Source: Candidatus Udaeobacter sp. (GTDB taxonomy: Bacteria > Verrucomicrobiota > Verrucomicrobiia > Chthoniobacterales > UBA10450). Taken from it: a DNA stretch of 64,000 bases. Made by a program: the position numbers and the translations under genes. Under the pieces are notes generated by a model, which saw nothing but the letters and a program-made list of their open reading frames with translations, was not told the DNA's origin and made no database searches. The stretch spans positions 3,235 through 67,234 of the forward strand of contig DASREQ010000069.1 in assembly GCA_035651975.1 (NCBI GenBank). The letters run 5' to 3'. This document shows, in pieces, positions 7,547 through 46,887 of the stretch; position 1 is the first letter of the stretch, and the number at the start of each line of letters is the position of its first letter.

Positions 7547-8425
7547 CTAAAAACCATATCGTGCGGGCCAATCCCTGGCCGGCCCGCCGAGCCGCGCTGC
7601 GCAGTTCTTCAGTTCCTTCTTGAAGAACGTGGCCAGATGCGACCGTACCTTGTTTGTGAGCGGAAGCTTTTCCATCCTGGTCCAGCTGTTGTGATCCGCC
7701 GCCAATCGGCTGCCTGGCTTGTCTGGATCAGCACCCAGGAAACGAAGGATAGACTGCCGCAATTCAGCGGGATTGCTTTGCAGATCATCAAAGAAATAAA
7801 CACGAAACTGTTTCGCAGGGACATAGTGCTTCCATCGCGCAACCACGGCACTTGGGTACGAACGCAAAAGCATTCCCCGGCGGAGCAAATTCCGATTGAC
7901 TGCATCAATGTCGGTCACATCAAACGGCTCAATTTGGCGGTAACGCACTTCCATCGACAAGTGCGACCACACGCGCTCAACCGGATCGCGCGCCAGAAAG
8001 ATCACCTTTAGGTTTGGAAAGTATTCAACGATCTGGCGAATGATTTCATTACTTAGGGTCGAATAATTCGGGGAGATATCGCCTGAAAGAAGTGATGCCT
8101 TGGACTCGAACAACCGCCCGTAATTCTCGAGGTCGATACGCGGTTCAGCGCTGAGGCTCTTGAGCTTTTCCAGAAATCGAAGATCGCGCTCATCTCTGCA
8201 GCGCGGACGCGCTGCGCGCTGAACCCGGCTCAGTTGATCAAAGTAATGGAGCTCCTTCACAGGAGGCATCCAGAAATCGGGATGAGAATCGAGTTGCTGA
8301 TAAAGCCACGTGCTTCCGGCTTTGTGCGCTCCGATACACAAAAAATCCGGTCCTGCGCCGCGAGCAGGAAACGGCTTATGTCTGCTGGCACTACCGCGAG
8401 CGTTGAACGGGCAAGCCCATCTCAC
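7547..8425 (-). CDS. sulfotransferase family protein (paralog 1)
   Basis: PAPS 5'-phosphosulfate loop (PDFLCIGAHKAGSTWLYQQL), HPDFWMPPVKELHYFD and a 3'-PB-like FLARDPVERVWS motif. Confidence 0.75.
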   Translation of the reverse strand: MRWACPFNARGSASRHKPFPARGAGPDFLCIGAHKAGSTWLYQQLDSHPDFWMPPVKELHYFDQLSRVQRAARPRCRDERDLRFLEKLKSLSAEPRIDLENYGRLFESKASLLSGDISPNYSTLSNEIIRQIVEYFPNLKVIFLARDPVERVWSHLSMEVRYRQIEPFDVTDIDAVNRNLLRRGMLLRSYPSAVVARWKHYVPAKQFRVYFFDDLQSNPAELRQSILRFLGADPDKPGSRLAADHNSWTRMEKLPLTNKVRSHLATFFKKELKNCAARLGGPARDWPARYGF

Positions 8426-8488
8426 CTTTGGTTATCTCCTTGTTGGAGTTTATGGCAGGTACGGTGACCGCAGCGCACCGCCTCTACC

Positions 8489-9475
8489 TCAGGCGACCCA
8501 ATCGCACCAGCAAGAGATATCAAAATAGTCAGCCAGCTCCCAGAAAAAGATGAGTAATGAAAAACCATATCGCGCCGGCCATTCTCTCGCCGGCCCGCCC
8601 AGTTCTGCGGCGCACGCCTTGAGTTCTTTCTTAAAAAACTGCGCCAGCGCGGAACGTACCTTGGCAATTATCGGAAGTTTTTTCCAACCGGATTGGGTAT
8701 TATAGTCCGGGCTGAGGGGACCGCTCGGCTTGCGGGGATCGGCGCCCAGGAAACTTAGTATCGAACGTCGCAGTCCAGCGGGATCTCTTTCCAGGTCGTC
8801 AAAGAAATAGATGCGAAAGAGATCCGGGCAAACATGACGCCGCCAGCGCGCGACAATTTTGCTTGGATACGAGCGGAGGAACACTGCGGGGTTCAGCAGA
8901 TACCGAGTCACCTCATTCACGTCCGTGGTGTCACAAGGGGGGACGCCCCGGACGCGGGCATCCATCGATAATTGCGACCAGGCGCGCTCTACTGGATCGC
9001 GCGCCAGAAAAATCACCTTCAAATTTGGGAAATAACTGACGATTTGTTCAATAAGCTCATCATTCAGTAACGAATAGGCTGGCGTAATATCGCCGGCCAG
9101 CAGTCCGGTCTTGGGCTGGAATAAGCGTGAGTAACCATGCAGATCAATGTAAGATTGTGCACCGAGTTTAGTTATTCTCTCCAAAAACCACTGATCGCGC
9201 CCATCTTTGCAACGAGGCGCGTTGGGCCGTTTAACTTTGCTCAGCGCGTCGAAGTAATGCAGTTCCTTGACGGGAGGCATCCAGAAATCAGGATGCAAGC
9301 TGAGCTGGTGATAAAGCCATGATGTTCCCCCTTTCTGAGCCCCAACGCACAAGAAATCGGGGCAGGCGGCGTCTAAGTGATTATCCTCTTCGTTTCGATC
9401 GTCGTTTACGCGAGGTTTCAGTGGCCAGGCCAGACGCATGGCCGCATTATTTTCCATCGCGCAGTCAAAAAGCAA
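8489..9475 (-). CDS. sulfotransferase family protein (paralog 2, tandem duplicate)
   Basis: Colinear with 7547-8425 along its whole length (PDFLCVGAQKGGTSWLYHQL, FLARDPVERAWS, C-terminal ELGGPAREWPARYGF). The start may be a later Met (9457). Confidence 0.75.
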   Translation of the reverse strand: MLFDCAMENNAAMRLAWPLKPRVNDDRNEEDNHLDAACPDFLCVGAQKGGTSWLYHQLSLHPDFWMPPVKELHYFDALSKVKRPNAPRCKDGRDQWFLERITKLGAQSYIDLHGYSRLFQPKTGLLAGDITPAYSLLNDELIEQIVSYFPNLKVIFLARDPVERAWSQLSMDARVRGVPPCDTTDVNEVTRYLLNPAVFLRSYPSKIVARWRRHVCPDLFRIYFFDDLERDPAGLRRSILSFLGADPRKPSGPLSPDYNTQSGWKKLPIIAKVRSALAQFFKKELKACAAELGGPAREWPARYGFSLLIFFWELADYFDISCWCDWVA

Positions 9476-20093: not shown

Positions 20094-21746
20094 GTGAACG
20101 ATCGAGTGGGGGCTCGCGAGCGGCTGATTTCGTTCCTTGAATCGCCTGCCTCGTATCTACACCAGCCGGCGGAAGTTCACGCCATTCAAACCCACATCTC
20201 GTGGGTCTTCATGGCGTCGCCGTTTGTCTTCAAGGTGAAAAAGCCGGTGAATCTCGGCTTCCTCGATTTCAGCACGCTGGAAAAACGCCGCTACTTTTGC
20301 CAGCGCGAGATTGAATTGAACCGGCGACTCTGTCCGGGGATTTATCTCGACACGGTTCCCATTTACGAGACTGATTCCGGTTTTTCGTTCAAACCACCGG
20401 GCGACATCGTCGAGTATGCCGTCAAAATGAAAGAACTGCCGGACGGCTGGTTCTTAAGCGAGTTGCTCGAGAAAAGTTTGGTCGGTGAAAAGGAGATCAA
20501 CCGCGTGATCTCCACCCTGCATCGATTTTATCAGGAGGAAACTCCGACGTTCGAAATCGAACAATGGGGCACACCCGAAAAGTTAAAGATCAGCACCAAC
20601 GAAAACTTCGCGCAGGTAGAGCCATTCGTTGGCAAGACAATCTCGCGCCCCGCCTTCGAAGCCATTCGTCATTTCACAAACCGGTTCTACACCGTGAAGG
20701 AAAACCTTTTCTGTGAACGAATTCAGCAGCACCGGATTCTCGATTGCCATGGCGATTTGCATCTCGATCATGTCCATCTCGCTCCGGACGCGACCACCAT
20801 CTTTGATTGCATCGAATTCAACGATCGATTCCGTTTCATCGATATCGCCAACGACCTCGCATTTCTGGCGATGGATTTCGATTTCAAAGGGCGAAGCGAT
20901 CTGGGAAACCTGCTTCTGCGAAATGCCGCGCGCGAATCAGGCGACGCAGGAATGCTGAAAGTCGCGAATTTCTATAAGTGCTATCGCGCGTTCGTTCGCG
21001 GAAAGGTCGAAAGCATCCAGGCGACAGAGAAAGAAACGACCAACCCGCAGGAGCACGAAAGACAAGCGGCTCGCTATTTTCGTCTCGCGCTTCGGTATGC
21101 CATCGCCGGCTCCGAGCCATTGATTCTTGTCGTAATGGGCCGGATCGGCACGGGCAAGAGCACTATGGCGAAACGACTTGCCAGCGAGTTGGATTGGCCG
21201 GTCTTCTCCTCCGACGAAATTCGCAAGACACTGGCCGGCCTTCCGCTTACGAGACGAACGCCGCCAGAATTGCGCGACAAAATCTATTCGGCGCAAATGA
21301 CGCGACGAACCTACAGGAACCTTTTTAAAGAGGGTTTCACCGCGATCGGTTGCTGTAGCCGAGGGCGCCGATCTCGGCTGGTTCCACCTCACAACGGCGT
21401 CATTCTCGATGCCAAATTTTCGACGCGCGCCCTCCGCAAATTTCTTTGCGACGAATGCAAGAAAGCGAACGTGCCAATTCAGTTCATAGAACTCGAGGTC
21501 GGTCCCAATGAAATCAAAAAACGGCTTAAGCTCCGCAATGAAAAAACGGCCGAAGCATCCGATGCTCGCCTCGAAGACTTCGAGAAGTTGAGCGCGGCTT
21601 ACGAGCCACCATCTGAAGTCGGGCCTGACTTAATCAGAATTTCAACGAAGACATCGGTTTCCGACACTGTGAAAGCCATCTTGCTGTGCCTGGCCGAAAA
21701 GCAATCACTTGCGACCAACAACGCCCGCTTTGTTGGATCTCGCTAG
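20094..21746 (+). CDS. bifunctional aminoglycoside-phosphotransferase-like kinase / P-loop (AAA/zeta-like) kinase domain protein
   Basis: The N-terminal half is protein-kinase/APH-like (ILDCHGDLHLDHVHL...FDCIEFNDRFRFIDIANDLAFL). The C-terminal half has a P-loop (VVMGRIGTGKSTMAKRLA). It starts with GTG. Confidence 0.72.
   Translation: MNDRVGARERLISFLESPASYLHQPAEVHAIQTHISWVFMASPFVFKVKKPVNLGFLDFSTLEKRRYFCQREIELNRRLCPGIYLDTVPIYETDSGFSFKPPGDIVEYAVKMKELPDGWFLSELLEKSLVGEKEINRVISTLHRFYQEETPTFEIEQWGTPEKLKISTNENFAQVEPFVGKTISRPAFEAIRHFTNRFYTVKENLFCERIQQHRILDCHGDLHLDHVHLAPDATTIFDCIEFNDRFRFIDIANDLAFLAMDFDFKGRSDLGNLLLRNAARESGDAGMLKVANFYKCYRAFVRGKVESIQATEKETTNPQEHERQAARYFRLALRYAIAGSEPLILVVMGRIGTGKSTMAKRLASELDWPVFSSDEIRKTLAGLPLTRRTPPELRDKIYSAQMTRRTYRNLFKEGFTAIGCCSRGRRSRLVPPHNGVILDAKFSTRALRKFLCDECKKANVPIQFIELEVGPNEIKKRLKLRNEKTAEASDARLEDFEKLSAAYEPPSEVGPDLIRISTKTSVSDTVKAILLCLAEKQSLATNNARFVGSR
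21353..21379 (+). repeat. REP-like unit (CTGTAG + hairpin) inside the kinase CDS
   Basis: CTGT-AGCCGAG-ggcgccgat-CTCGGCT. The GTAG overlaps a 7-bp stem. Confidence 0.5.
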
Positions 21747-25339: not shown

Positions 25340-27190
25340 CTACACCATCGGGCGAAACCGCCCGACCACTTCCTGCAGGCGACCAGTGATCTGGCCTAAC
25401 GAACAGACTTCCGCCGCTTCGAGCAACATCGGGAAACAATTCTCGCCGCGTTCGACGACGTCGGCGAGTTTATCCAGCGTGCGTTTCGCTTTGTCGGCGT
25501 TTTTCTTTTTGAACTTCGCCAGGCGATCAACCTGCAACTGCTGTTTCTTTCGCGGGGTGCGCGCCAGTTTCACTTCCGGTATATCCTCGGCGCCGTCACG
25601 ATAGCGGTTGAGTCCGATAATCGGGCGAGTCCCATTGTAAATTTGCTGCTCGTACCGATGCGCGGCGTTTTGAATCTGGCTGCGCTGATAACGGTCTTCG
25701 ACCGCAGCAAGCACGCCACCCAGTCGTTGGATCTCCCGGAACTCCTCGAGAATTGCCGCTTCTACCGAGCGTTCGACGGCTTTCATCCCGGGCGAACCGC
25801 TCAACATGTTCATGGTGTGTTTGAAAATGCCGGACTCCTCCAGCAGAATCGCCTGGCTGTGCGCGGCAAGCCGAATCCATTCTTCACTCGGCGTTGTGAA
25901 TGGTTCGTCCGCGCTGTTGGAATGACACGAATTCGTCGCGTTCATGTAAGCGAGAACCAGTTCGGCCGCGGTGCGGGTGAGATTATTTTTGAATTCCGCT
26001 GCGATCAGCGAGCGACCACTGGTTTGGGTGTGCAATTTGAAAAGCTGCGCTCTCGGGCCGGCACCAAACACGTCGCGCATTCCGATCGCCCAGATGCGCC
26101 GCGAGACGCGCGCGAGCGCGATATATTCGGCATCGAGACCGCAATCGAGGAAGAATGAGAGGCGCGGGCCGAATTGATCGACTGGAATTCCACGTCCCGC
26201 GAACATTTCCGCATACGCGAATCCATTCGAGAGCGTATAAGCGGCTTGTTGCACTGGTGTCGAACCAGCTTCCCCGATGTGGTAACCGCTGATTGAAATC
26301 GGATACCAGCGCGGCATTTCACGCGTAGTGAATTCAACCATGTCGGTGAGAAAACGCAGCGAGGCTTCGATGGGGAAAATCGTTTCGTTCTGTGCCTGGA
26401 CTTCTTTGAAGATGTCCGCCTGAATTGTGCCGCGCAGCCTGGGGAAAACCTTCGGACCGAACCTGCGTTTCGCCGCGGCGATGTACATCGCCATGATGAT
26501 CGGCGCCGGGCCGCTGATGGTCATCGACGCGGAGAAATTTGGCGAGCCGAGATCAAAACCGTCGTAAAGCCGCACCATGTCTTCGACGGTATCGATCGCG
26601 ACGCCGCCCTCGCCGATTTTTCCGAAGACCCCATCCGCATCGCTATCGATGCCATAGAGCGTCGGTCCATCGAACGCGGTGCTGAGCCGGTGCGTGCGCT
26701 GATGCCGGGTCAGATAATGAAAACGCCCGTTAGTATCCTCGGCCAGCATCAAGCCAGAGAACAAACGCGTCGGCTCTTCGGCTTGAGGTAATGGCGGACG
26801 CACTTTCGAGCTCTTTGCAGGTGACACGGTTCGAGCCGGACTGGCATTTGCCGCTGCTGGTTCACCGTTTTTTTGGAAGCTTTCGAGCTCCCGGATTGGC
26901 TCCAAATACATCTCGCGGTAGGCGCCATTGAGAAATGGGAACTCGCCTGGCAATCCTTCGCCGAAGAGAAAACGCGCGATCTCGCCCGGTTCGTCGATCT
27001 CGGGCAAAGCCAGGCGCGGCAAAAGCAGTCCGGTCGGGGTCCGCGTGACTGGAATTTTCGCTTTGATATCGTTCCAGCGGCCCAACAGTTCACGGCCGAA
27101 TTCTTCATCGTCGCGCGCGCGCTTTACCTGATCGAGAACGAACTTGTTGTACTTCTCGATCGACTCAACAACTTGTCCAAGCTTGCTCAT
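25340..27190 (-). CDS. icmF: IcmF-type acyl-CoA mutase, substrate-binding (TIM-barrel) part
   Basis: 616-aa methylmalonyl/isobutyryl-CoA-mutase-family catalytic domain (FPFLNGAYREMY, TMTISGPAPIIMAMYIAAA, IQADIFKE.QAQNE.IFP). Its ATG overlaps the stop of the upstream B12/GTPase gene (ATGA). Confidence 0.85.
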   Translation of the reverse strand: MSKLGQVVESIEKYNKFVLDQVKRARDDEEFGRELLGRWNDIKAKIPVTRTPTGLLLPRLALPEIDEPGEIARFLFGEGLPGEFPFLNGAYREMYLEPIRELESFQKNGEPAAANASPARTVSPAKSSKVRPPLPQAEEPTRLFSGLMLAEDTNGRFHYLTRHQRTHRLSTAFDGPTLYGIDSDADGVFGKIGEGGVAIDTVEDMVRLYDGFDLGSPNFSASMTISGPAPIIMAMYIAAAKRRFGPKVFPRLRGTIQADIFKEVQAQNETIFPIEASLRFLTDMVEFTTREMPRWYPISISGYHIGEAGSTPVQQAAYTLSNGFAYAEMFAGRGIPVDQFGPRLSFFLDCGLDAEYIALARVSRRIWAIGMRDVFGAGPRAQLFKLHTQTSGRSLIAAEFKNNLTRTAAELVLAYMNATNSCHSNSADEPFTTPSEEWIRLAAHSQAILLEESGIFKHTMNMLSGSPGMKAVERSVEAAILEEFREIQRLGGVLAAVEDRYQRSQIQNAAHRYEQQIYNGTRPIIGLNRYRDGAEDIPEVKLARTPRKKQQLQVDRLAKFKKKNADKAKRTLDKLADVVERGENCFPMLLEAAEVCSLGQITGRLQEVVGRFRPMV

Positions 27191-28341
27191 TTTGATCCTC
27201 TCGAAATTAGCTCGAATAATTCGTCCACGCCAGGATCGCGATGTCGTTTTGCAACGGTATCGATCAGGCGCTGATTACGCCGGTTTTGTTCCAGACGTTG
27301 TTCGATTTCGGTGTGCGCGGTGCGGGCGCGCTGAAGATCGCTTTTGTTCACCACCACGATTTCCGCGAGATCGAGCATGACGATTTTTTGCAGTTGCAAC
27401 CGGCTTCCGTAATCGGGATTCATCACCAGGATAGTCGAATCGACAATGCCATTTTTCTGAAACGGCATCGCTTCCTGGCCGGTGCCAACAGTTTCAATGA
27501 TCACGTAATCAAACCCCGATCGGGCGAGCAGGGCCAGGCAATCGTGTGTAGCGGGCGAAAGTCCACCAGCCTGGCCACGTGTGGCCATGCTGCGCATGAA
27601 CACGCGATCATTTTGCGAATTGATCATCGTGGCCCGATCACCCAATAACGCTCCTTCGCCAATGACGCTCGGATCGTGCGACAAAATCGCGATCCTTCCC
27701 TTTGGCTTTTGATTCAGAAAACGCAGTACCAGCTCGTCAATCAACGTCGTTTTGCCCGCACCGCCGGGACCAGTAAAGCCAATCACGCGCGTTTTGCTCG
27801 AATTTCGAATCTTCTTGTTGAGCGTTGGACGTTGGACGTTGGATGTTGGACGTTTGCCTCTGGCCCAGGCGTCCTCGATCGCCGTCAGCCTGTGAGCAAG
27901 GTCCTGGTCCGGCGATTTCGGGCGCGACCGCTTTCCGCGCTGCTTTCCGTAACGCTTCCGGACGTAATCCGTCATTTCTGCCAGTGAAGTTCCGGCAAAG
28001 AAAATATTGTCCACGCCTTTGCGCTTCATTGCCACGGCGTCGTCATGCGTGATCGTTCCGCCGCCGCCGCCAAAGACTTTGATGTTGTTCGCGCCGTATT
28101 TGCGCAAAAGACCAATGACTTCTGCGAAGAATTCGATATGCCCGCCGTTGTAACTCGAGATGCCAATGGCGCGGACATCTTCTTGAACGGCAGCGCGCAC
28201 AATGTCGCCGACCGAACGATGATAGCCAAGATATACAACCTCGATTCCGTGCCGGATGAATTCCAGATTGATCGTGTTAATGGCACTGTCGTGCCCGTCG
28301 CAAATCGGGACCGCGGTTAAAATTCGAATCGGCAAAGCCAT
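27187..28341 (-). CDS. icmF: IcmF-type acyl-CoA mutase, B12-binding domain fused to MeaB/MeaI-like G-protein chaperone
   Basis: N-terminal cobalamin domain (RILTAVPICDGHDSAINT...VYLGYH...IGISSYNGGH), followed by the P-loop GTPase GFTGPGGAGKTTLIDEL and ...VVNKSD. Confidence 0.85.
   Translation of the reverse strand: MALPIRILTAVPICDGHDSAINTINLEFIRHGIEVVYLGYHRSVGDIVRAAVQEDVRAIGISSYNGGHIEFFAEVIGLLRKYGANNIKVFGGGGGTITHDDAVAMKRKGVDNIFFAGTSLAEMTDYVRKRYGKQRGKRSRPKSPDQDLAHRLTAIEDAWARGKRPTSNVQRPTLNKKIRNSSKTRVIGFTGPGGAGKTTLIDELVLRFLNQKPKGRIAILSHDPSVIGEGALLGDRATMINSQNDRVFMRSMATRGQAGGLSPATHDCLALLARSGFDYVIIETVGTGQEAMPFQKNGIVDSTILVMNPDYGSRLQLQKIVMLDLAEIVVVNKSDLQRARTAHTEIEQRLEQNRRNQRLIDTVAKRHRDPGVDELFELISRGSK
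27817..27858. repeat. heptanucleotide tandem array (GTTGRRC)x6 inside the icmF N-terminal gene
   Basis: GTTGAGC GTTGGAC GTTGGAC GTTGGAT GTTGGAC GTTTGCC. On the coding strand it is translated as GKRPTSNVQRPTLN. Confidence 0.9.
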
Positions 28342-40343: not shown

Positions 40344-41078
40344 TCACTCGGGAACCCATTCGCCGCGGAGCGGAGCGGGCGGGGGACGCCAACGTCTGCG
40401 CAAGGGATCGTAAAACGGTCCGCGCGGCTGCGGTAACAAACGAAGCGCCGCGAGCGTTTGCAGATCAAGCCGCCCTGTTATCGGAAGTTTGGCCCGGGCC
40501 TGGTACGCTCGCAGTGAAAACTCCATTGCCGGCCCGTAAATTCCATTGACCTTGTCATGATAAAGGCCGCGTCGCGCCAGCGCGATTTGAGCAGAAACGA
40601 TCACGTTGCGTTGCACCTGGGGCGGTGCAGTTTCGAAAGGCGTCCGCGCGAGTACTCCTCCGGCTGACGCGGCCGGGGCGACGGGGTTGGATGGATACAC
40701 TTGTCGATCTTGGGGCGCATTCGTAAACGGCTGAACGGCTGGTGGCGTTACATTCGCTTCCTCGATTGGCGATTGATCACCAGGGTTGGATAAAGCGGGG
40801 CTGGGTGAGGCAAGCTTTGCGGCTGGTCTCCCGGAAGAAGAAGAGTTAATTCCCAGCGATTGGAGCGTCTCACCATTGAGCTGACCATTGACCTGCAGGC
40901 CACTGCGAATTTGATAACGACGAATGGCCGCAGTTAAATCCGAACTCATCTGACCGGTGATCTCACCGTAATAAAAGCCCTGATCTTTCAAGGCTTCCTG
41001 CACGCTTTCAATCATCTGGTCCGCGCGCGTCGGGATAAGCAATCCGAAAAAGATCAGCGCAGCGATCCTGGCCTTCAT
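40344..41078 (-). CDS. peptidoglycan-binding (PG_binding_1) domain protein
   Basis: Signal peptide and two PGB repeats (LKDQGFYYGEITGQMSSDLTAAIRRYQIRSGLQVNGQL and LARRGLYHDKVNGIYGPAMEFSLRAYQARAKLPITGRL) joined by a Pro/Ser-rich linker. Confidence 0.7.
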   Translation of the reverse strand: MKARIAALIFFGLLIPTRADQMIESVQEALKDQGFYYGEITGQMSSDLTAAIRRYQIRSGLQVNGQLNGETLQSLGINSSSSGRPAAKLASPSPALSNPGDQSPIEEANVTPPAVQPFTNAPQDRQVYPSNPVAPAASAGGVLARTPFETAPPQVQRNVIVSAQIALARRGLYHDKVNGIYGPAMEFSLRAYQARAKLPITGRLDLQTLAALRLLPQPRGPFYDPLRRRWRPPPAPLRGEWVPE

Positions 41079-41115: not shown

Positions 41116-41913
41116 TCAGCGCTTTCCCGAATCTGTTACCGCCAACGTTGGCTTCCGTTGGCTCACCGCATTGCGATAGTGCAAAATACCGTCAGCCACG
41201 GCTGCGGCGATCTGATCGCGGTAATCTTCGCTCACAAGTTTGGAAATATCCTCCTTATTGGTGAGAAATCCTCCTTCGATCAAGGCGGCAGGAGAAGTGA
41301 CGTTTGCGATCACAAAAAATTGTCCGGGTTGTGTGCCGCGATCGATGGCTCGCGTGCGGGCGACCAGCGCTTCTTGAATGAGTCCCGCGAGCCTCTGGCT
41401 TTCAGGGTTCGGCGACCCGGAAAGTGGTCGCCATAAAAAAGGCAACCATGAAGCCAGAGAGGATACTGTGGTGATTTGATGCGAGGCGTAGTAAGTCTCC
41501 ACACCACTGGCGACCGGCTTGTTATCTTCGTTGAAATGAATGCTGACGAAAATGCAATTTCTGATTCGATTAGCGAACGCCGCGCGATCTGCCAGCGAGA
41601 CGTAAGAATCTCCCAGGCGAGTCATCTGTGTCGCGATTCCTTCCGAGTCGAGCAAACGATCGATTCGTCGCGCCACGTCGAGCGTGAGATCTTTTTCCAG
41701 TAACCCTCCGCACATTGCACCGGAATCCTGTCCCCCATGGCCGGGATCAAGGATGACTACTGTGAAAGGACCAGGGGCAGCCGAAGGCTGCGCCGTTCTG
41801 GGCTCTGTGGCCGCCGACCTAGCTCTTTCCGTCTGGCGAAACTGCATCCAGACGAAAGACGCCAGCATCACCAACAAGCCAGAGAGAGCCAGGATATTCC
41901 GAAGTGGTTTCAC
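41116..41913 (-). CDS. N-acetylmuramoyl-L-alanine amidase (Amidase_3, AmiC-like)
   Basis: Motifs VVILDPGHGGQDSGA, ...FVSIHFN... and ...ALIEGGFLTN. Confidence 0.88.
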   Translation of the reverse strand: MKPLRNILALSGLLVMLASFVWMQFRQTERARSAATEPRTAQPSAAPGPFTVVILDPGHGGQDSGAMCGGLLEKDLTLDVARRIDRLLDSEGIATQMTRLGDSYVSLADRAAFANRIRNCIFVSIHFNEDNKPVASGVETYYASHQITTVSSLASWLPFLWRPLSGSPNPESQRLAGLIQEALVARTRAIDRGTQPGQFFVIANVTSPAALIEGGFLTNKEDISKLVSEDYRDQIAAAVADGILHYRNAVSQRKPTLAVTDSGKR

Positions 41914-41947
41914 TTATTATCTCCGGACGATGATTTTTTCCCATATC

Positions 41948-42727
41948 TTAGTCGCGAATCAAAGGACGTAATTCATTGTCTGACAACAAACGATAACGAA
42001 TTGCCCTGCCCGCGTCACGCTCAAGCAATGCCGCCTCGATTGCAGCGCCTGCGAGTTGTTCCTGTCGATGTTTCCTTACTGCAGCGCGCTCTGGTGGTTC
42101 CTTTGTGTCGCTGGTTTGTAAAGTCATATGCCCGATGCTCCATGCATCGAGCGCGGAATTGAGTGCCGTCTCAAGGTTGGCATCCGCTGAGTGCTGAGTC
42201 GCGAGAAATACTTCCATCAGCTCTCTTGATTGCTCTGTCCCACTGAGCGCGGCGAAGTCCCGCCGCGCCTGCGCGTACGTGGCGCCGTTGCTGGCGATCT
42301 CACCATCGTATTCTACTCGTAAAAACAAATCCTCTTCGGGTTGTTCTCCGACCTCCGCGAAGAGCATCCGTGCCAGGTATGGTGGCCCATAAATCTGTTC
42401 AAATGCGGTCTTCATTGCCGGACTAAGCGAGTAATGCGCCAGGCGTCGCAACGAAACATCCGCCGCCGAACGGGTGAAGCCTTCCGTGCTGGCCAGCTCG
42501 ATCGCCGCCATTCGCAATCTTTCGATGTCCCCGGGATGACCGATCGCACCCATCGCAATCCGGTCGTAGATCTCAAAAATCTTCTGACGCGTCTGGCCCA
42601 GGGTGACAAACAAAATGCCGTCGCCATAACCGAGCGCTGCGATCGGGCTGCCCGGAGCGAGCTGCGCTTCGATGTACTCGCGCCGGTTAGCGATCGCTTC
42701 GACCCAACGATACGGCTCTTCAATCAT
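41948..42727 (-). CDS. prcA: 20S proteasome alpha subunit (PrcA-like)
   Basis: Colinear by eye with my recollection of actinobacterial PrcA (...EAIANRREYIEAQLA.GSPIAALGYGDGILFVT...KIFEIYDRIAMGAIG...LRVEYDGEI...), including the C-terminal tail. Its ATG overlaps the prcB stop (ATGA 42724-42727). Confidence 0.85.
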   Translation of the reverse strand: MIEEPYRWVEAIANRREYIEAQLAPGSPIAALGYGDGILFVTLGQTRQKIFEIYDRIAMGAIGHPGDIERLRMAAIELASTEGFTRSAADVSLRRLAHYSLSPAMKTAFEQIYGPPYLARMLFAEVGEQPEEDLFLRVEYDGEIASNGATYAQARRDFAALSGTEQSRELMEVFLATQHSADANLETALNSALDAWSIGHMTLQTSDTKEPPERAAVRKHRQEQLAGAAIEAALLERDAGRAIRYRLLSDNELRPLIRD

Positions 42728-43548
42728 GCAACCGTTTCCTTAAACACCGCCGCAATTTTGCTCTCCGGCAACGTGGTGATTCCTTCGCGCGATACAATCT
42801 TGATAAGCGGATAAATCTTCCCGCTGCGATCTACGCCGCCTGTCGATGTGTCCGATTCCGCAGCGGTATCCAATGCACGCAACGCGATTGATACTGCTTC
42901 GTCTTCGCCTAATTCCTGCAGCGGCTTGGCTCCCCAATTGTTTTCGTAATAAAGAATGCCCCGCACCGCCGGCGATCCGGACCCCGTCGCTGCGTAATCA
43001 GCCACTTCAAATTGTGCACCCATTGCGTCGTAAAAATAAAGCCGCGCCTCGGGCTTCGGATGAGAATCGTAGGTCGCGAAGATCGGCACCACGACTCCGA
43101 TGCCCTGCATGACGGACCCGAAGTTGTCGCGCAACAGCTTCGACAGAGCGCGCACTTTGCCGTCAACACTCATTTCCTGCAGTTGCGTTCGGCGAAAGTA
43201 TTGAAATGAGTGTTCGAGCACGCGCGCCATTTCCCACGCCGTTGCCGGCACACCGGCAATGGCCATGATCGAGTGTCGATCGATTTCCAAAACTTTGTCG
43301 GCGCGATCATACACAACTGTATTACCAGCGGTTGCGCGGCGGTCGCCTGCCACCAACACGCCGCCTGAAAATTTGAAAGCGAGAATGGTGGTTGCTTCCG
43401 TCGGTTGCCACGTCTTTTGAGGCGCTCCGCCTTGCGGCACGGGATTCGCAGTTGCCGGGGTCAGCAAGCCTTTGCGACGCAACAGCGCAGAGAAATCGCC
43501 CGCTGCGCCAGAGAAATTCTGGTCAAACGCAACCGGGAAGCGGTCCAT
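42724..43548 (-). CDS. prcB: 20S proteasome beta subunit (PrcB-like) with ~52-aa propeptide
   Basis: ...TEA|TTILAFKFSGGVLVAGDRRATAGN.V......KV.EID carries the Thr-1 nucleophile context. I chose ATG 43548, which overlaps the TAA of the upstream small ORF by 1 nt. The ORF is open to 43686. Confidence 0.88.
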   Translation of the reverse strand: MDRFPVAFDQNFSGAAGDFSALLRRKGLLTPATANPVPQGGAPQKTWQPTEATTILAFKFSGGVLVAGDRRATAGNTVVYDRADKVLEIDRHSIMAIAGVPATAWEMARVLEHSFQYFRRTQLQEMSVDGKVRALSKLLRDNFGSVMQGIGVVVPIFATYDSHPKPEARLYFYDAMGAQFEVADYAATGSGSPAVRGILYYENNWGAKPLQELGEDEAVSIALRALDTAAESDTSTGGVDRSGKIYPLIKIVSREGITTLPESKIAAVFKETVA

Positions 43549-43724
43549 TATTCGCCGGTGCGCTGGCGATAGCGCTTGGATTGATTGGGATCCACCCTGC
43601 GCATTTTTTTTAAGAGATCCTTCGTGTCCGGCCGCGAAATGTCGGGTGAACGTGGACCTCCACCATCGCCTTGTTTTGGATCCCATGGAGCCGGTTCTGC
43701 GGGCTTCTGAATGCGCTCAGGCAT
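43548..43724 (-). CDS. ubact: UBact, Pup-like prokaryotic ubiquitin-like modifier
   Basis: 58-aa disordered peptide MPERIQKPAEPAPWDPKQGDGGGPRSPDISRPDTKDLLKKMRRVDPNQSKRYRQRTGE. The C-terminal ...RYRQRTGE and its position directly upstream of prcBA match the UBact description as I recall it. An alternative ATG lies at 43757. Confidence 0.7.
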   Translation of the reverse strand: MPERIQKPAEPAPWDPKQGDGGGPRSPDISRPDTKDLLKKMRRVDPNQSKRYRQRTGE

Positions 43725-43803
43725 AAAAAAATCTAAGAGCAAATACTGGAAAGGCAAGCTGCCGCGTTGTGTCGTGACTCATTAACTCGTCACACCGCCA
43801 CGT

Positions 43804-43851
43804 CGGTTTTTCGTTTTATCGTTTCAACGCTTTAACGATTCAACGTGGCGA
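43804..43851. repeat. octanucleotide-periodic array (CGnTTnAA-like)x6 in the UBact/LysM divergent region
   Basis: CGGTTTTT CGTTTTAT CGTTTCAA CGCTTTAA CGATTCAA CGTGGCGA. The CG dinucleotide recurs at an exact 8-nt period. Confidence 0.8.
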
Positions 43852-43895
43852 AGCCGCTTGCCAGACAAATCCGCTGATGGCAAACTTTTGCCCCG

Positions 43896-44375
43896 ATGAA
43901 GCTCGCATTGATTTTTTGTGTGACACTGCTTTTCGGGTCGCTTTGCACTGCGTCTGCGCAGACGGATGCGCCAAAGTCTCGCAAATCAGATGATGCTACT
44001 CAACTTGAAGCGCTGGCCAAAAAGATAGACGAACAGAATGCCAAGATTGACGCGCTTTCGCAGGAGATCCTCAAGCTGGAACAACAAATCGCACACATGC
44101 GACCGGGCGTAATGATTGGAGAAAGCACGCCCTCGGCAGCCAGTCCGGCCGCAGCCGCCGGGGCCGCGTCTTCACCACGTCCGGCTGGCGCAAATACGCA
44201 CATCGTCGCACGCGGTGAGACGCTCACTTCCATCGCCAAAATGTACAAGGTTACCGTGGACGAATTGCAAAATGCCAATCATATCGAAGATGGCCGCAAG
44301 CTGCAGGCCGGACAGACCATCATTATTCCGGCCGCGTCGCCGGCGGCTTCCAGTTCGCCATCCCCAACAGAATAG
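43896..44375 (+). CDS. LysM domain-containing protein
   Basis: Signal peptide, a coiled-coil, an Ala/Ser/Pro linker and LysM (HIVARGETLTSIAKMYKVTVDELQNANHIEDGRKLQAGQTIIIP). Confidence 0.8.
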   Translation: MKLALIFCVTLLFGSLCTASAQTDAPKSRKSDDATQLEALAKKIDEQNAKIDALSQEILKLEQQIAHMRPGVMIGESTPSAASPAAAAGAASSPRPAGANTHIVARGETLTSIAKMYKVTVDELQNANHIEDGRKLQAGQTIIIPAASPAASSSPSPTE

Positions 44376-44380
44376 GGCTC

Positions 44381-44929
44381 GTGAATCAAAGTTGGTTTCT
44401 GCGCAAACACGAAGATGGAAGCACCTTTGGCCCGGTGCGTTTTGATCAAATCGCGCGCTGGGCAGCAGCGGCGCAAATCGCCCCGCACGATATGCTTTCC
44501 AACGACCGGCAGACCTGGGTGAAAGCGCCGATGCTGCCCCAGCTCGGTATGGACTGGTTGGTGGAGCTCACCAGCGAGCATTATTACGGACCAACAACTT
44601 TGGGCGCCCTCCAGGAATTTATTCGGCTGGGCGAAATCGACGGTGAAACTCTTGTTATCAACACCCGCAACGGCGCGCGTTCCAAGATTCAGGAAATGCC
44701 ACAGTTGTGGGAGACGGGACAAGCGGACGCCGCAGATGCCCAGACCGAAATTCAACTGGGCGATCCTGTTGGACCGACAGTGGCGAGAATGTCGATTCGT
44801 CTCCAAGAGCAGATTCGTGATCTCGAGCAGAGCTTGGAAGAAGAGCGCCGCGCCCTGATGGAAGCCGAGCGACGATACGCTGAGCTAAAACAACAATACG
44901 AAGCGGCCATTCAGCGGGCTGGAATGTAA
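44381..44929 (+). CDS. GYF_2 (DUF4339)-like repeat protein with C-terminal coiled-coil
   Basis: Two W...(D/E)G...GP......(L/I)......G.I copies (WFLRKHEDGSTFGPVRFDQIARW and HYYGPTTLGALQEFIRLGEIDGETLV). GTG start. Confidence 0.55.
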   Translation: MNQSWFLRKHEDGSTFGPVRFDQIARWAAAAQIAPHDMLSNDRQTWVKAPMLPQLGMDWLVELTSEHYYGPTTLGALQEFIRLGEIDGETLVINTRNGARSKIQEMPQLWETGQADAADAQTEIQLGDPVGPTVARMSIRLQEQIRDLEQSLEEERRALMEAERRYAELKQQYEAAIQRAGM

Positions 44930-44991: not shown

Positions 44992-46887
44992 TCAGCAGAT
45001 TGGCAATTGTTCCTCTGCTTCGGGCGTCTGGGCGGCGGGAAGCTGTGCGGGCGACTCTGTTTCCCGTGGCGGCGAAGTTTCGAGCAAACTTTGCCGGCAT
45101 AGCCGCGCATATTTTCCGTCGAGCGCCAGCAATTCGTCGTGTGTGCCGCGCTCGATAATCCGGCCATGATCGAGTACCAGAATTTGGGTCGCATGCACAA
45201 TCGTGGAAAGCCGGTGCGCGATGACAATCGATGTGCGGTTTGCCATCAGGCGCTCCAGCGCTTCCTGGATCAAACGCTCGGTCGCAGTATCGACACTTGC
45301 TGTTGCTTCATCGAGAATCAAAACTGGTGGATCTTTCAACAGCGCTCGGGCAATAGAGAGGCGTTGTTTTTCGCCTACGCTCAATTTCACTCCTCGCTCG
45401 CCCACCACGCTTTCCAACCCGTCTGGTAAGCGTTGGATAAAATGCTGCGCGTTTGCTGCGACCACCGCGCGCCATAATTCGGCGTCGGCCGCTCGCGGTT
45501 TTCCCATAAGAAGGTTTTCGCGGATCGATCCGTTGAACAAAAAACTTTCCTGCGTCACCACACCGATCGCCTCGCGCAATGCGCGCAGGTCATATTCGCG
45601 AATCGGTTTCCCGTCGATGTAGATTTGTCCACTGGTGAATTCATAGAAACGCACGAGCAGATTCACCAGTGTCGACTTACCCGCGCCGGTTGCGCCCACC
45701 AGCGCCACGGTCGCGCCTGGCGGTGCGTGAAAGCAAACATTCCTTAGCGCGGGCAATCCGTCCACGTAGCTGAAGCTGACGTCCTGATAGCGAATATCTC
45801 CCACGATGTGTGTGCTTTGGGCGGAAACCTTGTAGGGCGTTTCTGTGAAACGCCGAACCACAGCCCTGGCGTCTGACACAGACGCCCTACAATTGTCGTC
45901 CGACAGATATTTCTGTTGATCGCGACAACCCGGCTCGACGGGTTCATCGAGAATTTCAAATACGCGCTCGCCTGCCGCGCGCCCGGCCTGCACGAGTTGA
46001 TTGAGCTGATGTAACCGGCTCAGGGGATCGTAGAGAAACGCGATTAGCATTAAAAACGCGACCAGATCGCCGATCTGCATCGAACCGCTCAGGACCGCGC
46101 GACTGCCAAACCCCAGTACCAGTAGAGCGCCAATCGATTCAACCAGCGACATCGACGGGCTGTAAATCGCCCATACGCGCATCACCACGAGTGTGGCTCG
46201 TCTTAATTGGTCGCTTACCCTGTCAAACCGCGTGTGCTCTTCGTTCTCACGTGCAAAACTTTTGATCTGCCGGACGCCGGCCAGATTGTCGTGTAGCAGC
46301 GCGTTCATGTCTGAGGAGGCCCGGCGCTGCAAACGATACCGCCGATGGGCAGTCAGCGTGTACGTGAGCGTGCCGGCGACAAGTAACGGGAAGGGCACGA
46401 GCGCGAGCAACGCCAGCTTCGCGTCCAGATAAAACATCATGCCTATGACGATGAGTACCTGCAGAATGGCGACGACGCCCTGCTCGATTCCGTCAATCAA
46501 TACACGCTCGACCGAGTTGACGTCCTCAATCACGCGCGTCATCAGGTCGCCGGTGGCGCGGTTATCGAACCACCGCAGCGGCAGCAACTGGATGTGCGAA
46601 TACAAATCGCTGCGCAAATCGAAAATCACTTTTTGCTCAAACGTGTTGTTCAACACAATGCGCAGCGCATTGAACCCGTGCTGGAGAAGAAATGCGATCG
46701 CGGCAAGCGCGATTAGCGGCAGCAATTTGTCCGGACGATGTGCGCGTACGACGTCGTTGATGATCCATTTCGTGGTCGCGGGGAAAACAATCACCATCAG
46801 CGTGCTCAGGATGGCACACGTCAATGTCCCGGCGGCCATCCAAGGATACCGCTTCAAGTAAGCAAAAACGCGCCAAACGGTTTTCAT
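44992..46887 (-). CDS. ABC transporter, fused permease/ATP-binding protein (MsbA-like type I exporter)
   Basis: Six-TM domain, Walker A GATGAGKST, signature LSVGEKQR, Walker B ILILDEATS and H-loop IAHRL. It carries a REPIN-derived in-frame insertion between the TMD and NBD. Confidence 0.92.
   Translation of the reverse strand: MKTVWRVFAYLKRYPWMAAGTLTCAILSTLMVIVFPATTKWIINDVVRAHRPDKLLPLIALAAIAFLLQHGFNALRIVLNNTFEQKVIFDLRSDLYSHIQLLPLRWFDNRATGDLMTRVIEDVNSVERVLIDGIEQGVVAILQVLIVIGMMFYLDAKLALLALVPFPLLVAGTLTYTLTAHRRYRLQRRASSDMNALLHDNLAGVRQIKSFARENEEHTRFDRVSDQLRRATLVVMRVWAIYSPSMSLVESIGALLVLGFGSRAVLSGSMQIGDLVAFLMLIAFLYDPLSRLHQLNQLVQAGRAAGERVFEILDEPVEPGCRDQQKYLSDDNCRASVSDARAVVRRFTETPYKVSAQSTHIVGDIRYQDVSFSYVDGLPALRNVCFHAPPGATVALVGATGAGKSTLVNLLVRFYEFTSGQIYIDGKPIREYDLRALREAIGVVTQESFLFNGSIRENLLMGKPRAADAELWRAVVAANAQHFIQRLPDGLESVVGERGVKLSVGEKQRLSIARALLKDPPVLILDEATASVDTATERLIQEALERLMANRTSIVIAHRLSTIVHATQILVLDHGRIIERGTHDELLALDGKYARLCRQSLLETSPPRETESPAQLPAAQTPEAEEQLPIC
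45832..45890. repeat. REPIN-type double hairpin (copy B) inside the ABC exporter CDS
   Basis: GTAGGGCGTTTC-tgt-GAAACGCC, then 13 nt, then GGCGTCTG-aca-CAGACGCCCTAC. GTAG heads occur on both strands. Confidence 0.88.

Follow-up and report, generated by a model that had tools for sequence, protein, structure and literature searches.

Lehmann et al. reportedly described UBact-proteasome loci of Gram-negative phyla in 2017. In the canonical loci of this kind that we recovered (L151, L102, L161, and L128), the genes for Mpa, Dop, UBact, PrcB, PrcA, and PafA form one block, in that order. For Pup, the tag of the actinobacterial proteasome, Iyer et al. (2008) stated that the gene is "invariably" adjacent to a PafA-family gene (PMC2588565). 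Here we analyzed a three-gene UBact-prcB-prcA operon, encoding a ubiquitin-like modifier and the two subunits of a 20S proteasome, in a stretch of 64,000 nucleotides from Candidatus Udaeobacter sp., a member of the Chthoniobacterales in the Verrucomicrobiota (contig DASREQ010000069.1), which we call the window. We found that the modifier-ligase adjacency of the Pup loci of Iyer et al. is missing in Udaeobacter. We propose that the partner genes of this operon are unlinked, that they separated from it during the evolution of the Chthoniobacterales, and that conjugation and proteolysis proceed by the pathway set out below. We give this reading a probability of roughly 0.7.

The window operon resembles the canonical UBact loci in several ways. 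In both, a short modifier rich in Pro and Gly and ending RYRQRTG[EQ] directly precedes prcB-prcA, the beta subunit is of the bacterial type with a propeptide and Thr1, and the order is UBact-PrcB-PrcA. In contrast, the canonical loci carry Mpa, Dop, and PafA, and the window operon is without them in at least 72 kb. The proteins have also diverged: when full-length proteins were aligned, canonical PrcB was only about 55% identical to that of the window and PrcA was 35 to 40% identical. The L151 enzymes were assigned with Pfam and NCBIfam as Mpa (AAA and proteasomal OB domains; TIGR03689, 437 bits), a Dop-type enzyme (TIGR03688, 459 bits), and a PafA-type enzyme. As for the actinobacterial Pup-proteasome, the PrcB and PrcA proteins of Mycobacterium tuberculosis and Rhodococcus are the closest solved structures, and the tag has the same C-terminal G-[EQ]. 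The window modifier differs from Pup in that it fits the UBact profile and belongs to proteins ending in TG[EQ] rather than GG[EQ].

The operon is made up of the following features.

43548-43724, minus strand: UBact gene, 58 amino acids ending RYRQRTGE, from profile matches and conservation
43393-43548, minus strand: PrcB propeptide, residues 1 to 52, with Thr1 placed by alignment with M. tuberculosis and Rhodococcus PrcB
42724-43392, minus strand: mature PrcB and stop codon, starting at TTILAFKF; predicted 20S beta subunit and Ntn-hydrolase with Thr1, Asp17, Lys33, and GSG loop
41948-42727, minus strand: PrcA, predicted divergent 20S alpha subunit of 259 amino acids, from PF00227 and PrcA structure matches

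The modifier gene translates, in the minus-strand reading of 41800-44000 and in the open reading frame listing, as MPERIQKPAEPAPWDPKQGDGGGPRSPDISRPDTKDLLKKMRRVDPNQSKRYRQRTGE, which starts MPERIQ. This peptide scored 81.9 bits against the Pfam UBact family PF20513 (cutoff, 27.8) and 83 bits against the NCBIfam equivalog NF033388 (cutoff, 35). It did not match the Pup profile (PF05639), and PF20513 was the sole family returned at an E value of ≤1. Its terminus is TGE, versus GG[EQ] in Pup. The peptide is a UBact, an analogue or a distant relative of Pup and not Pup in the strict sense. NCBI lists the exact peptide as "ubiquitin-like protein UBact [Candidatus Udaeobacter sp.]" (HZR06878.1). The operon and the UBact family are thus already catalogued, and this is a known system.

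We compared the gene with its relatives in 80 loci from a scan of GTDB species representatives. PrcB in these loci is 83 to 96% identical to that of the window, and nearly all of them are labeled Candidatus Udaeobacter or generic Verrucomicrobiota. Seventy-eight of the 80 carry the full UBact gene; one of the remaining two is cut by the contig end, and the other retains the 3' part only. Wherever the gene is complete in Udaeobacter loci, its length is constant at 177 nucleotides. The variable columns of the alignment number 15, 10, and 54 at codon positions 1, 2, and 3, respectively. This bias toward third positions marks the short open reading frame as translated and subject to purifying selection. 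Across the genus, the last 30 residues hardly vary, and they are nearly the same in ligase-carrying lineages. We found no support for a 69-amino-acid reading initiated at TTG, as the residues ahead of the Met vary freely in relatives (LDFF, VRFF, and LNFF) and conservation begins at MPERIQ.

These data bear on the suggestion that the frame arose by chance or is what is left of a decaying gene, with prcBA making up the whole operon. The gene caller of the source assembly skipped the frame, and neither a Shine-Dalgarno sequence nor a strong promoter was detected, as that suggestion would have it. Against it, the profile scores are two to three times the curated cutoffs, the length is identical in 79 sequences with substitutions favoring third codon positions, the overlap of the UBact stop with the prcB start is conserved, and the homologue was called and Pfam annotated in two sister genomes (L167 and L168). 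We give this suggestion practically no weight; the conservation analysis has already refuted it.

PrcB is 274 amino acids long, and the Thr of TTILAFKF is codon 53 (43390-43392). It scored 104.9 bits against PF00227 (cutoff, 22.4). By far its best NCBIfam model, the actinobacterium-trained TIGR03690, gave 172.3 bits, which is slightly under the cutoff of 191.9. The closest PDB matches of PrcB are the PrcB proteins of M. tuberculosis and Rhodococcus, at E values of about 1e-30, and archaeal and eukaryotic beta subunits match it far more weakly. T53 aligns with Thr1 of both of these proteins. Thr1, Asp17, Lys33, and the GSG loop do not vary when PrcB is aligned with eight homologues, the most distant of which is 37% identical. 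We conclude that PrcB is a bacterial-type 20S beta subunit with an intact active site.

PrcA is more divergent. It scored 23.2 bits against PF00227, barely above the cutoff of 22.4, and 86.6 bits against TIGR03691, below the cutoff of 139. With phmmer, it matched bacterial PrcA structures only (E = 1.5e-14), and a profile built from ten homologues again matched bacterial PrcA structures only (E = 2e-19, over about 190 residues). These matches identify the 259-amino-acid protein as a divergent bacterial PrcA. At the first junction of the operon, TAATG, the UBact TAA (43548-43550) and the prcB ATG (43546-43548) share base 43548. At the second, ATGA (42724-42727), the prcB TGA overlaps the prcA ATG. 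The operon and its neighbors recur across the 80 species, with UBact lying directly before prcB-prcA, and the layout predicts that the three genes are translationally coupled. An initial annotation, made from the letters of the window, had proposed these coordinates and both junctions, TTILAFKF, and a propeptide of about 52 amino acids, and we reproduced all of them from the minus-strand reading and the open reading frame list. Its naming of the modifier as UBact and its view that the alpha subunit is colinear with actinobacterial PrcA agree with the profile and alignment results above.

We then looked for the ligase and ATPase. The source stretch is the ENA metagenome contig ERZ27279688:k141_74927, of 71,991 bp, in which the window lies at about 3875-67874. 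A Pfam scan of the 16 window open reading frames of ≥380 amino acids found no Pup_ligase (PF03136) and no classical AAA domain (PF00004); a 550-amino-acid frame at 20094-21746 is an AAA_33 kinase-like protein and not a classical AAA protein. When the window and the roughly 4 kb beyond each side were searched by tblastn in six frames, validated probes for Mpa, Dop, and PafA gave no match at an E value of <0.01. The same search found nothing at this threshold in the 80 Udaeobacter loci, each with 10 kb on either side. The probes came from canonical loci that were reached via a 50%-identity representative library and one metagenome scan, and the canonical loci, as a positive control, matched them at E = 0. 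In the relatives, no ligase is found among the large open reading frames without a homologue in the window; these frames, one of which is a recurrent, ligase-sized frame of 461 amino acids, encode proteins such as an MFS transporter, PPK2, halogenases, and MutS.

The absence of the partners near the operon is real and holds genus-wide within 10 kb on either side. The initial annotation had found neither a Dop/PafA-type ligase nor an AAA unfoldase in the 64 kb, which both searches bear out, and the ends of the contig did not supply mpa, dop, or pafA just outside the window. It had left the machinery as unlinked, different, or absent, and this was a fair division of the possibilities.

In the sister Chthoniobacterales lineages L096, L167, L168, and L185, the arrangement is ligase-GYF-LysM-UBact-PrcB-PrcA-Amidase3. 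In the window and in two intermediate lineages, L089 and L112 (PrcB, 75 to 78% identical to the window), it is ABC-GYF-LysM-UBact-PrcB-PrcA-Amidase3. L167 lies on a 1.57-Mb contig and L168 is a complete chromosome of 7.8 Mb; both were found via the ligase of L096, whose PrcB is 71% identical to that of the window. In both, the Pup_ligase gene lies just past GYF_2 on the UBact strand, and L185 is similar. Downstream of PrcA lie Amidase_3 and PG_binding_1 in L168 and DUF3108 in L167. The sister lineages thus share with Udaeobacter a neighborhood of GYF_2, LysM, UBact, PrcB, PrcA, Amidase_3, PG_binding_1, and DUF3108, and L096, L167, and L168 are 69 to 74% identical to the window in PrcB and 74 to 78% in UBact. 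They differ in having a Pup-ligase-family gene of 464 to 466 amino acids 2 to 3 kb upstream on the same strand, where the Udaeobacter lineage has an ABC transporter.

In no recovered Chthoniobacterales locus, including that of "Verrucomicrobiota bacterium sgz303538" (GCA_054456655.1), does Mpa or a Dop-type paralogue lie within 10 kb, which indicates that dispersal of the six-gene system had already taken place in this order. Some of its lineages have the ligase beside the operon, and others have it as a stand-alone gene. The missing partners therefore reflect lineage-wide dispersal in the Chthoniobacterales and not a peculiarity of one locus, and the Udaeobacter lineage appears from gene order to have gone one step further, with the ligase lost from the neighborhood. 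The series from the canonical six-gene cluster through the ligase-adjacent to the ligase-displaced arrangement means that a UBact system can disperse across the genome. Such a dispersed arrangement contradicts the generalization that the modifier is always beside the ligase (PMC2588565), and annotation based on neighborhood will misjudge genomes that have it. In the literature, we found no paper on the dispersed arrangement and none linking Udaeobacter to UBact, PafA, Dop, Mpa, or pupylation-type enzymes. In one of the ligase-adjacent loci (L185, 13689-14753), UBact and prcB are apparently frameshifted, with split calls of 82 and 112 amino acids and tblastn matches in two frames; either an assembly error or a pseudogene could explain this, and the genome retains the ligase.

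The C terminus of UBact bears on whether the conjugation chemistry persists. Among 79 Udaeobacter sequences, the terminal residue is Gln in 74 (CAA in 36 and CAG in 38) and Glu in 5 (GAA), and it is nothing else, so that the Glu of the window is a minority state within the genus. By prcBA nucleotide distances, the Glu-ending UBacts are spread over at least five lineages, each with Gln in its nearest neighbors. The third position of the terminal codon drifts freely. A Gln/Glu polymorphism of the terminus is also known among actinobacterial Pups. By analogy with what is established for Pup, a terminus held strictly to Gln or Glu would fit ligation through the gamma-carboxylate with prior deamidation. 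As the residue is never anything other than these two, we argue that the conjugation chemistry persists. The initial annotation had stated that the terminal Glu needs no deamidation by Dop. The chemistry is correct for this strain; for the genus it misleads, because Gln in most congeners implies a deamidase for the genus as a whole, even if the window strain needs none.

According to the reading that we favor, PrcB and PrcA would assemble into a 20S proteasome as in actinobacteria. A Pup-ligase-family enzyme whose gene lies elsewhere would join the gamma-carboxylate of the C-terminal Glu of UBact to lysines of the substrates, and the Gln-ending UBacts of congeners would be deamidated before ligation. 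An unfoldase, likewise unlinked, would deliver the tagged proteins to the 20S core. The partner genes would have left the operon during Chthoniobacterales evolution, with sister lineages keeping the ligase just beyond the GYF-LysM pair and the ABC transporter filling the former ligase slot in the Udaeobacter lineage. The role would likely be regulated proteolysis and amino acid recycling in an oligotroph whose genome is reduced. Udaeobacter ranks with the most abundant bacteria in soil, and functions for peptide uptake and degradation abound in its reduced genome; a conserved UBact-proteasome operon fits a role in amino acid recycling.

Several results weigh against this reading. Foremost, we never found a ligase, deamidase, or ATPase of Udaeobacter itself. 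We searched with P0381, the ligase of the lineage closest to Udaeobacter, and recovered an abundant clade of stand-alone ligases (clade A: P0409, P0416, and P0406), in clusters of 207 to 265 members. These genes adjoin gltX/aroE and an NAPRTase gene, have a Udaeobacter-like GC content of 0.54 to 0.55, and are 82 to 93% identical to one another. As the Udaeobacter ligase, however, clade A had to be rejected. Its tetranucleotide correlation with a reference of 30 kb of nonhomologous window sequence is 0.83 to 0.89, versus 0.974 ± 0.005 for true Udaeobacter (41 loci as a control), and one member lies on a contig of 5.04 Mb, too large for the reduced Udaeobacter genome. None of the roughly 240 ligase matches listed, with an identity floor of 72 to 73%, carries a Udaeobacter label. 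No Mpa-type ATPase lies near any prcBA or any ligase of this order, so the unfoldase is something that we only infer. Finally, the statement of Brewer et al. on Ca. Udaeobacter leaves the components meant unspecified.

The best tetranucleotide match of clade A is the L113/L117 sister lineage, in which PrcB is 65% identical to that of the window and UBact-prcBA is also compact. Clade A thus provides a precedent, from a related lineage, for a ligase that is unlinked; it is not the Udaeobacter gene. Clades B and C, represented by P0408 (L184) and P0418 (L185), were likewise rejected as the Udaeobacter ligase, with tetranucleotide correlations of 0.71 and 0.82, respectively. Stand-alone Pup_ligase genes are present in clades A and B. 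Organism labels on the ligase cluster members and on the flanking housekeeping genes are generic ("Chthoniobacterales bacterium"), and a PrcB homology search gave Udaeobacter only, among the 120 matches listed. Wherever a lineage has the two genes, the identity of the ligase follows that of PrcB (r = 0.95); by this regression, a Udaeobacter orthologue would be about 70% identical to the best ligase query. This is below the floor of the listed matches; absence from the lists is therefore weak evidence, and we rejected it as proof of loss. We consider it probable that a ligase is present in Udaeobacter and unlinked, because the terminus and the C-terminal half of UBact are under selection, because there are precedents within the order, and because of the statement of Brewer et al.

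Two other explanations have to be weighed against unlinked partners. The PafA/Dop-type enzymes and Mpa may have been truly lost in genome reduction, leaving UBact as a noncovalent adaptor or regulator of the 20S proteasome or as a tag attached by an unrelated enzyme. Such a loss would account for the missing ligase and ATPase in 72 kb and within 10 kb on either side in 80 species, for the ABC transporter in the ligase slot, and for ligase matches that, as listed, show no Udaeobacter label or signature although the organism is hugely represented, with 960 and 106 members in two UBact clusters and 732 in one PrcB cluster; the Udaeobacter genome is, moreover, known to be reduced. We nevertheless consider it unlikely. 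The terminus is strictly Gln or Glu in 79 species while the third codon position drifts, and the C-terminal half of UBact is nearly invariant and matches that of ligase-carrying lineages. In Pup, the C-terminal half is the part that binds PafA/Dop and Mpa. In addition, the searches stopped short of the predicted identity of about 70%, and stand-alone ligase genes exist in related lineages. The stronger proposition that Udaeobacter has a conserved UBact and an active 20S proteasome and yet no PafA/Dop-family enzyme or Mpa anywhere in the genome, with an unknown enzyme or no covalent conjugation at all, seems to us rather improbable. If true, it would be a new mode of bacterial proteasome targeting and a tractable noncanonical case.

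The system could also be complete and minimal, with one enzyme intermediate between PafA and Dop, encoded elsewhere, that both deamidates and ligates, and with another 20S activator in place of a dedicated Mpa. Each recovered Chthoniobacterales locus has at most one Pup-ligase-family gene, and no Dop-type paralogue or Mpa lies within 10 kb. The Chthoniobacterales ligases are ambiguous, scoring about 329 bits on the PafA and about 314 bits on the Dop equivalog model, both far below the cutoff, and this near equality speaks for a single enzyme, as does the finding that the UBacts of ligase-carrying Chthoniobacterales end in Gln. There is also a precedent: Hecht et al. described single PafA/Dop homologues in some Planctomycetes and found that few substitutions separate the two activities (PMC7947786). 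Against this, the view around each gene is limited to 10 kb on either side, so a second paralogue and Mpa may lie elsewhere, and nothing of the kind was observed in Udaeobacter. A single bifunctional ligase/deamidase in the Chthoniobacterales is a speculation drawn from these scores, and we hold a minimal system of this type to be improbable. Unlinked partners that separated during Chthoniobacterales evolution remain the reading that we prefer.

Two further observations concern the stand-alone ligase genes. An open reading frame of 560 to 599 amino acids without a Pfam match (DUF6600 in L180) lies directly upstream of Pup_ligase on the same strand in L175 (8130-9929), L176 (4159-5958), L180 (8070-9752), and L181 (8236-9930); it is missing from the P0409 subclade of the stand-alone-ligase clade. 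In L184 (11414-12928), a stand-alone Pup_ligase is convergent with a MoxR-type AAA gene with an FHA domain (bpMoxR/AAA_3/AAA_5), whose product is not an unfoldase of the Mpa type, and the two genes may be neighbors by coincidence.

The operon is flanked by the following features.

43725-43770, minus strand: conserved upstream region with a weak sigma-70-like pair, from an alignment of 77 upstream regions
43896-44375, plus strand: divergent LysM gene (PF01476), from Pfam
44381-44929, plus strand: GYF_2-domain gene, from Pfam
44992-46887, minus strand: ABC exporter gene (ABC_membrane and ABC_tran, from Pfam), in the slot and on the strand of the Pup ligase of the sister lineages
41116-41913, minus strand: Amidase_3/amiC gene (PF01520), from Pfam
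40344-41078, minus strand: PG_binding_1 gene, from Pfam

The divergent LysM gene and amiC had both been recognized as the flanks in the initial annotation. Across 77 Udaeobacter loci, about 45 nucleotides before the UBact ATG are almost invariant. They contain TTGCCT (43752-43757), a spacer of 16 nucleotides, and TAGATT (43730-43735), and the pair ends 5 nucleotides ahead of the ATG. A consensus promoter scan of this upstream region returned nothing at its threshold. We found no Shine-Dalgarno sequence upstream of the UBact start, which raises the possibility of a leaderless transcript; with low confidence, the UBact mRNA may be leaderless. On the other side of the operon, Amidase_3 and PG_binding_1 follow prcA in 63 of the 80 loci and in L168. 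No convincing terminator was found on the 3' side of prcA, and these two genes may be cotranscribed with it.

The LysM and GYF_2 pair lies next to UBact throughout the Chthoniobacterales (L088, L089, L112, L096, L167, L168, and L185) and is absent from the canonical Mpa-Dop loci. Proline-rich peptides are the ligands of GYF domains, and UBact is Pro rich in its N-terminal half. A functional link between the GYF_2 protein and UBact is pure speculation.

The operon is also of practical use to annotators, as public records of this locus disagree. PrcB is entered at NCBI as "proteasome subunit alpha" (HZR06877.1) and PrcA as "hypothetical protein VFA61_13700" (HZR06876.1), and UBact is missed or overrun by other pipelines. 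The ENA gene calls omit UBact, and many deposited PrcB models, at 319 to 321 amino acids, start inside the UBact gene in another frame. The modifier had been called easily missed, and this holds for the ENA gene caller and for the many models that overextend prcB; it does not hold for NCBI, which names the exact peptide UBact.

Three contigs with a Udaeobacter-type operon (L014, L067, and L072; PrcB, 84 to 93% identical) sit in metagenome-assembled genomes labeled Dormiibacterota, Nitrospirota, and Alphaproteobacteria, and an identical UBact is labeled "Candidatus Baltobacteraceae" in one record. These oddly labeled Udaeobacter-type contigs are most likely misbinned.

Elsewhere in the window, two paralogous sulfotransferase genes (Sulfotransfer_1/3; 292 and about 322 amino acids) lie side by side on the minus strand at 7547-9475. 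At 25340-28341, a gene for a large subunit of the methylmalonyl-CoA-mutase family (616 amino acids) is preceded by one for a 384-amino-acid fusion of a B12-binding domain with a MeaB-type GTPase.

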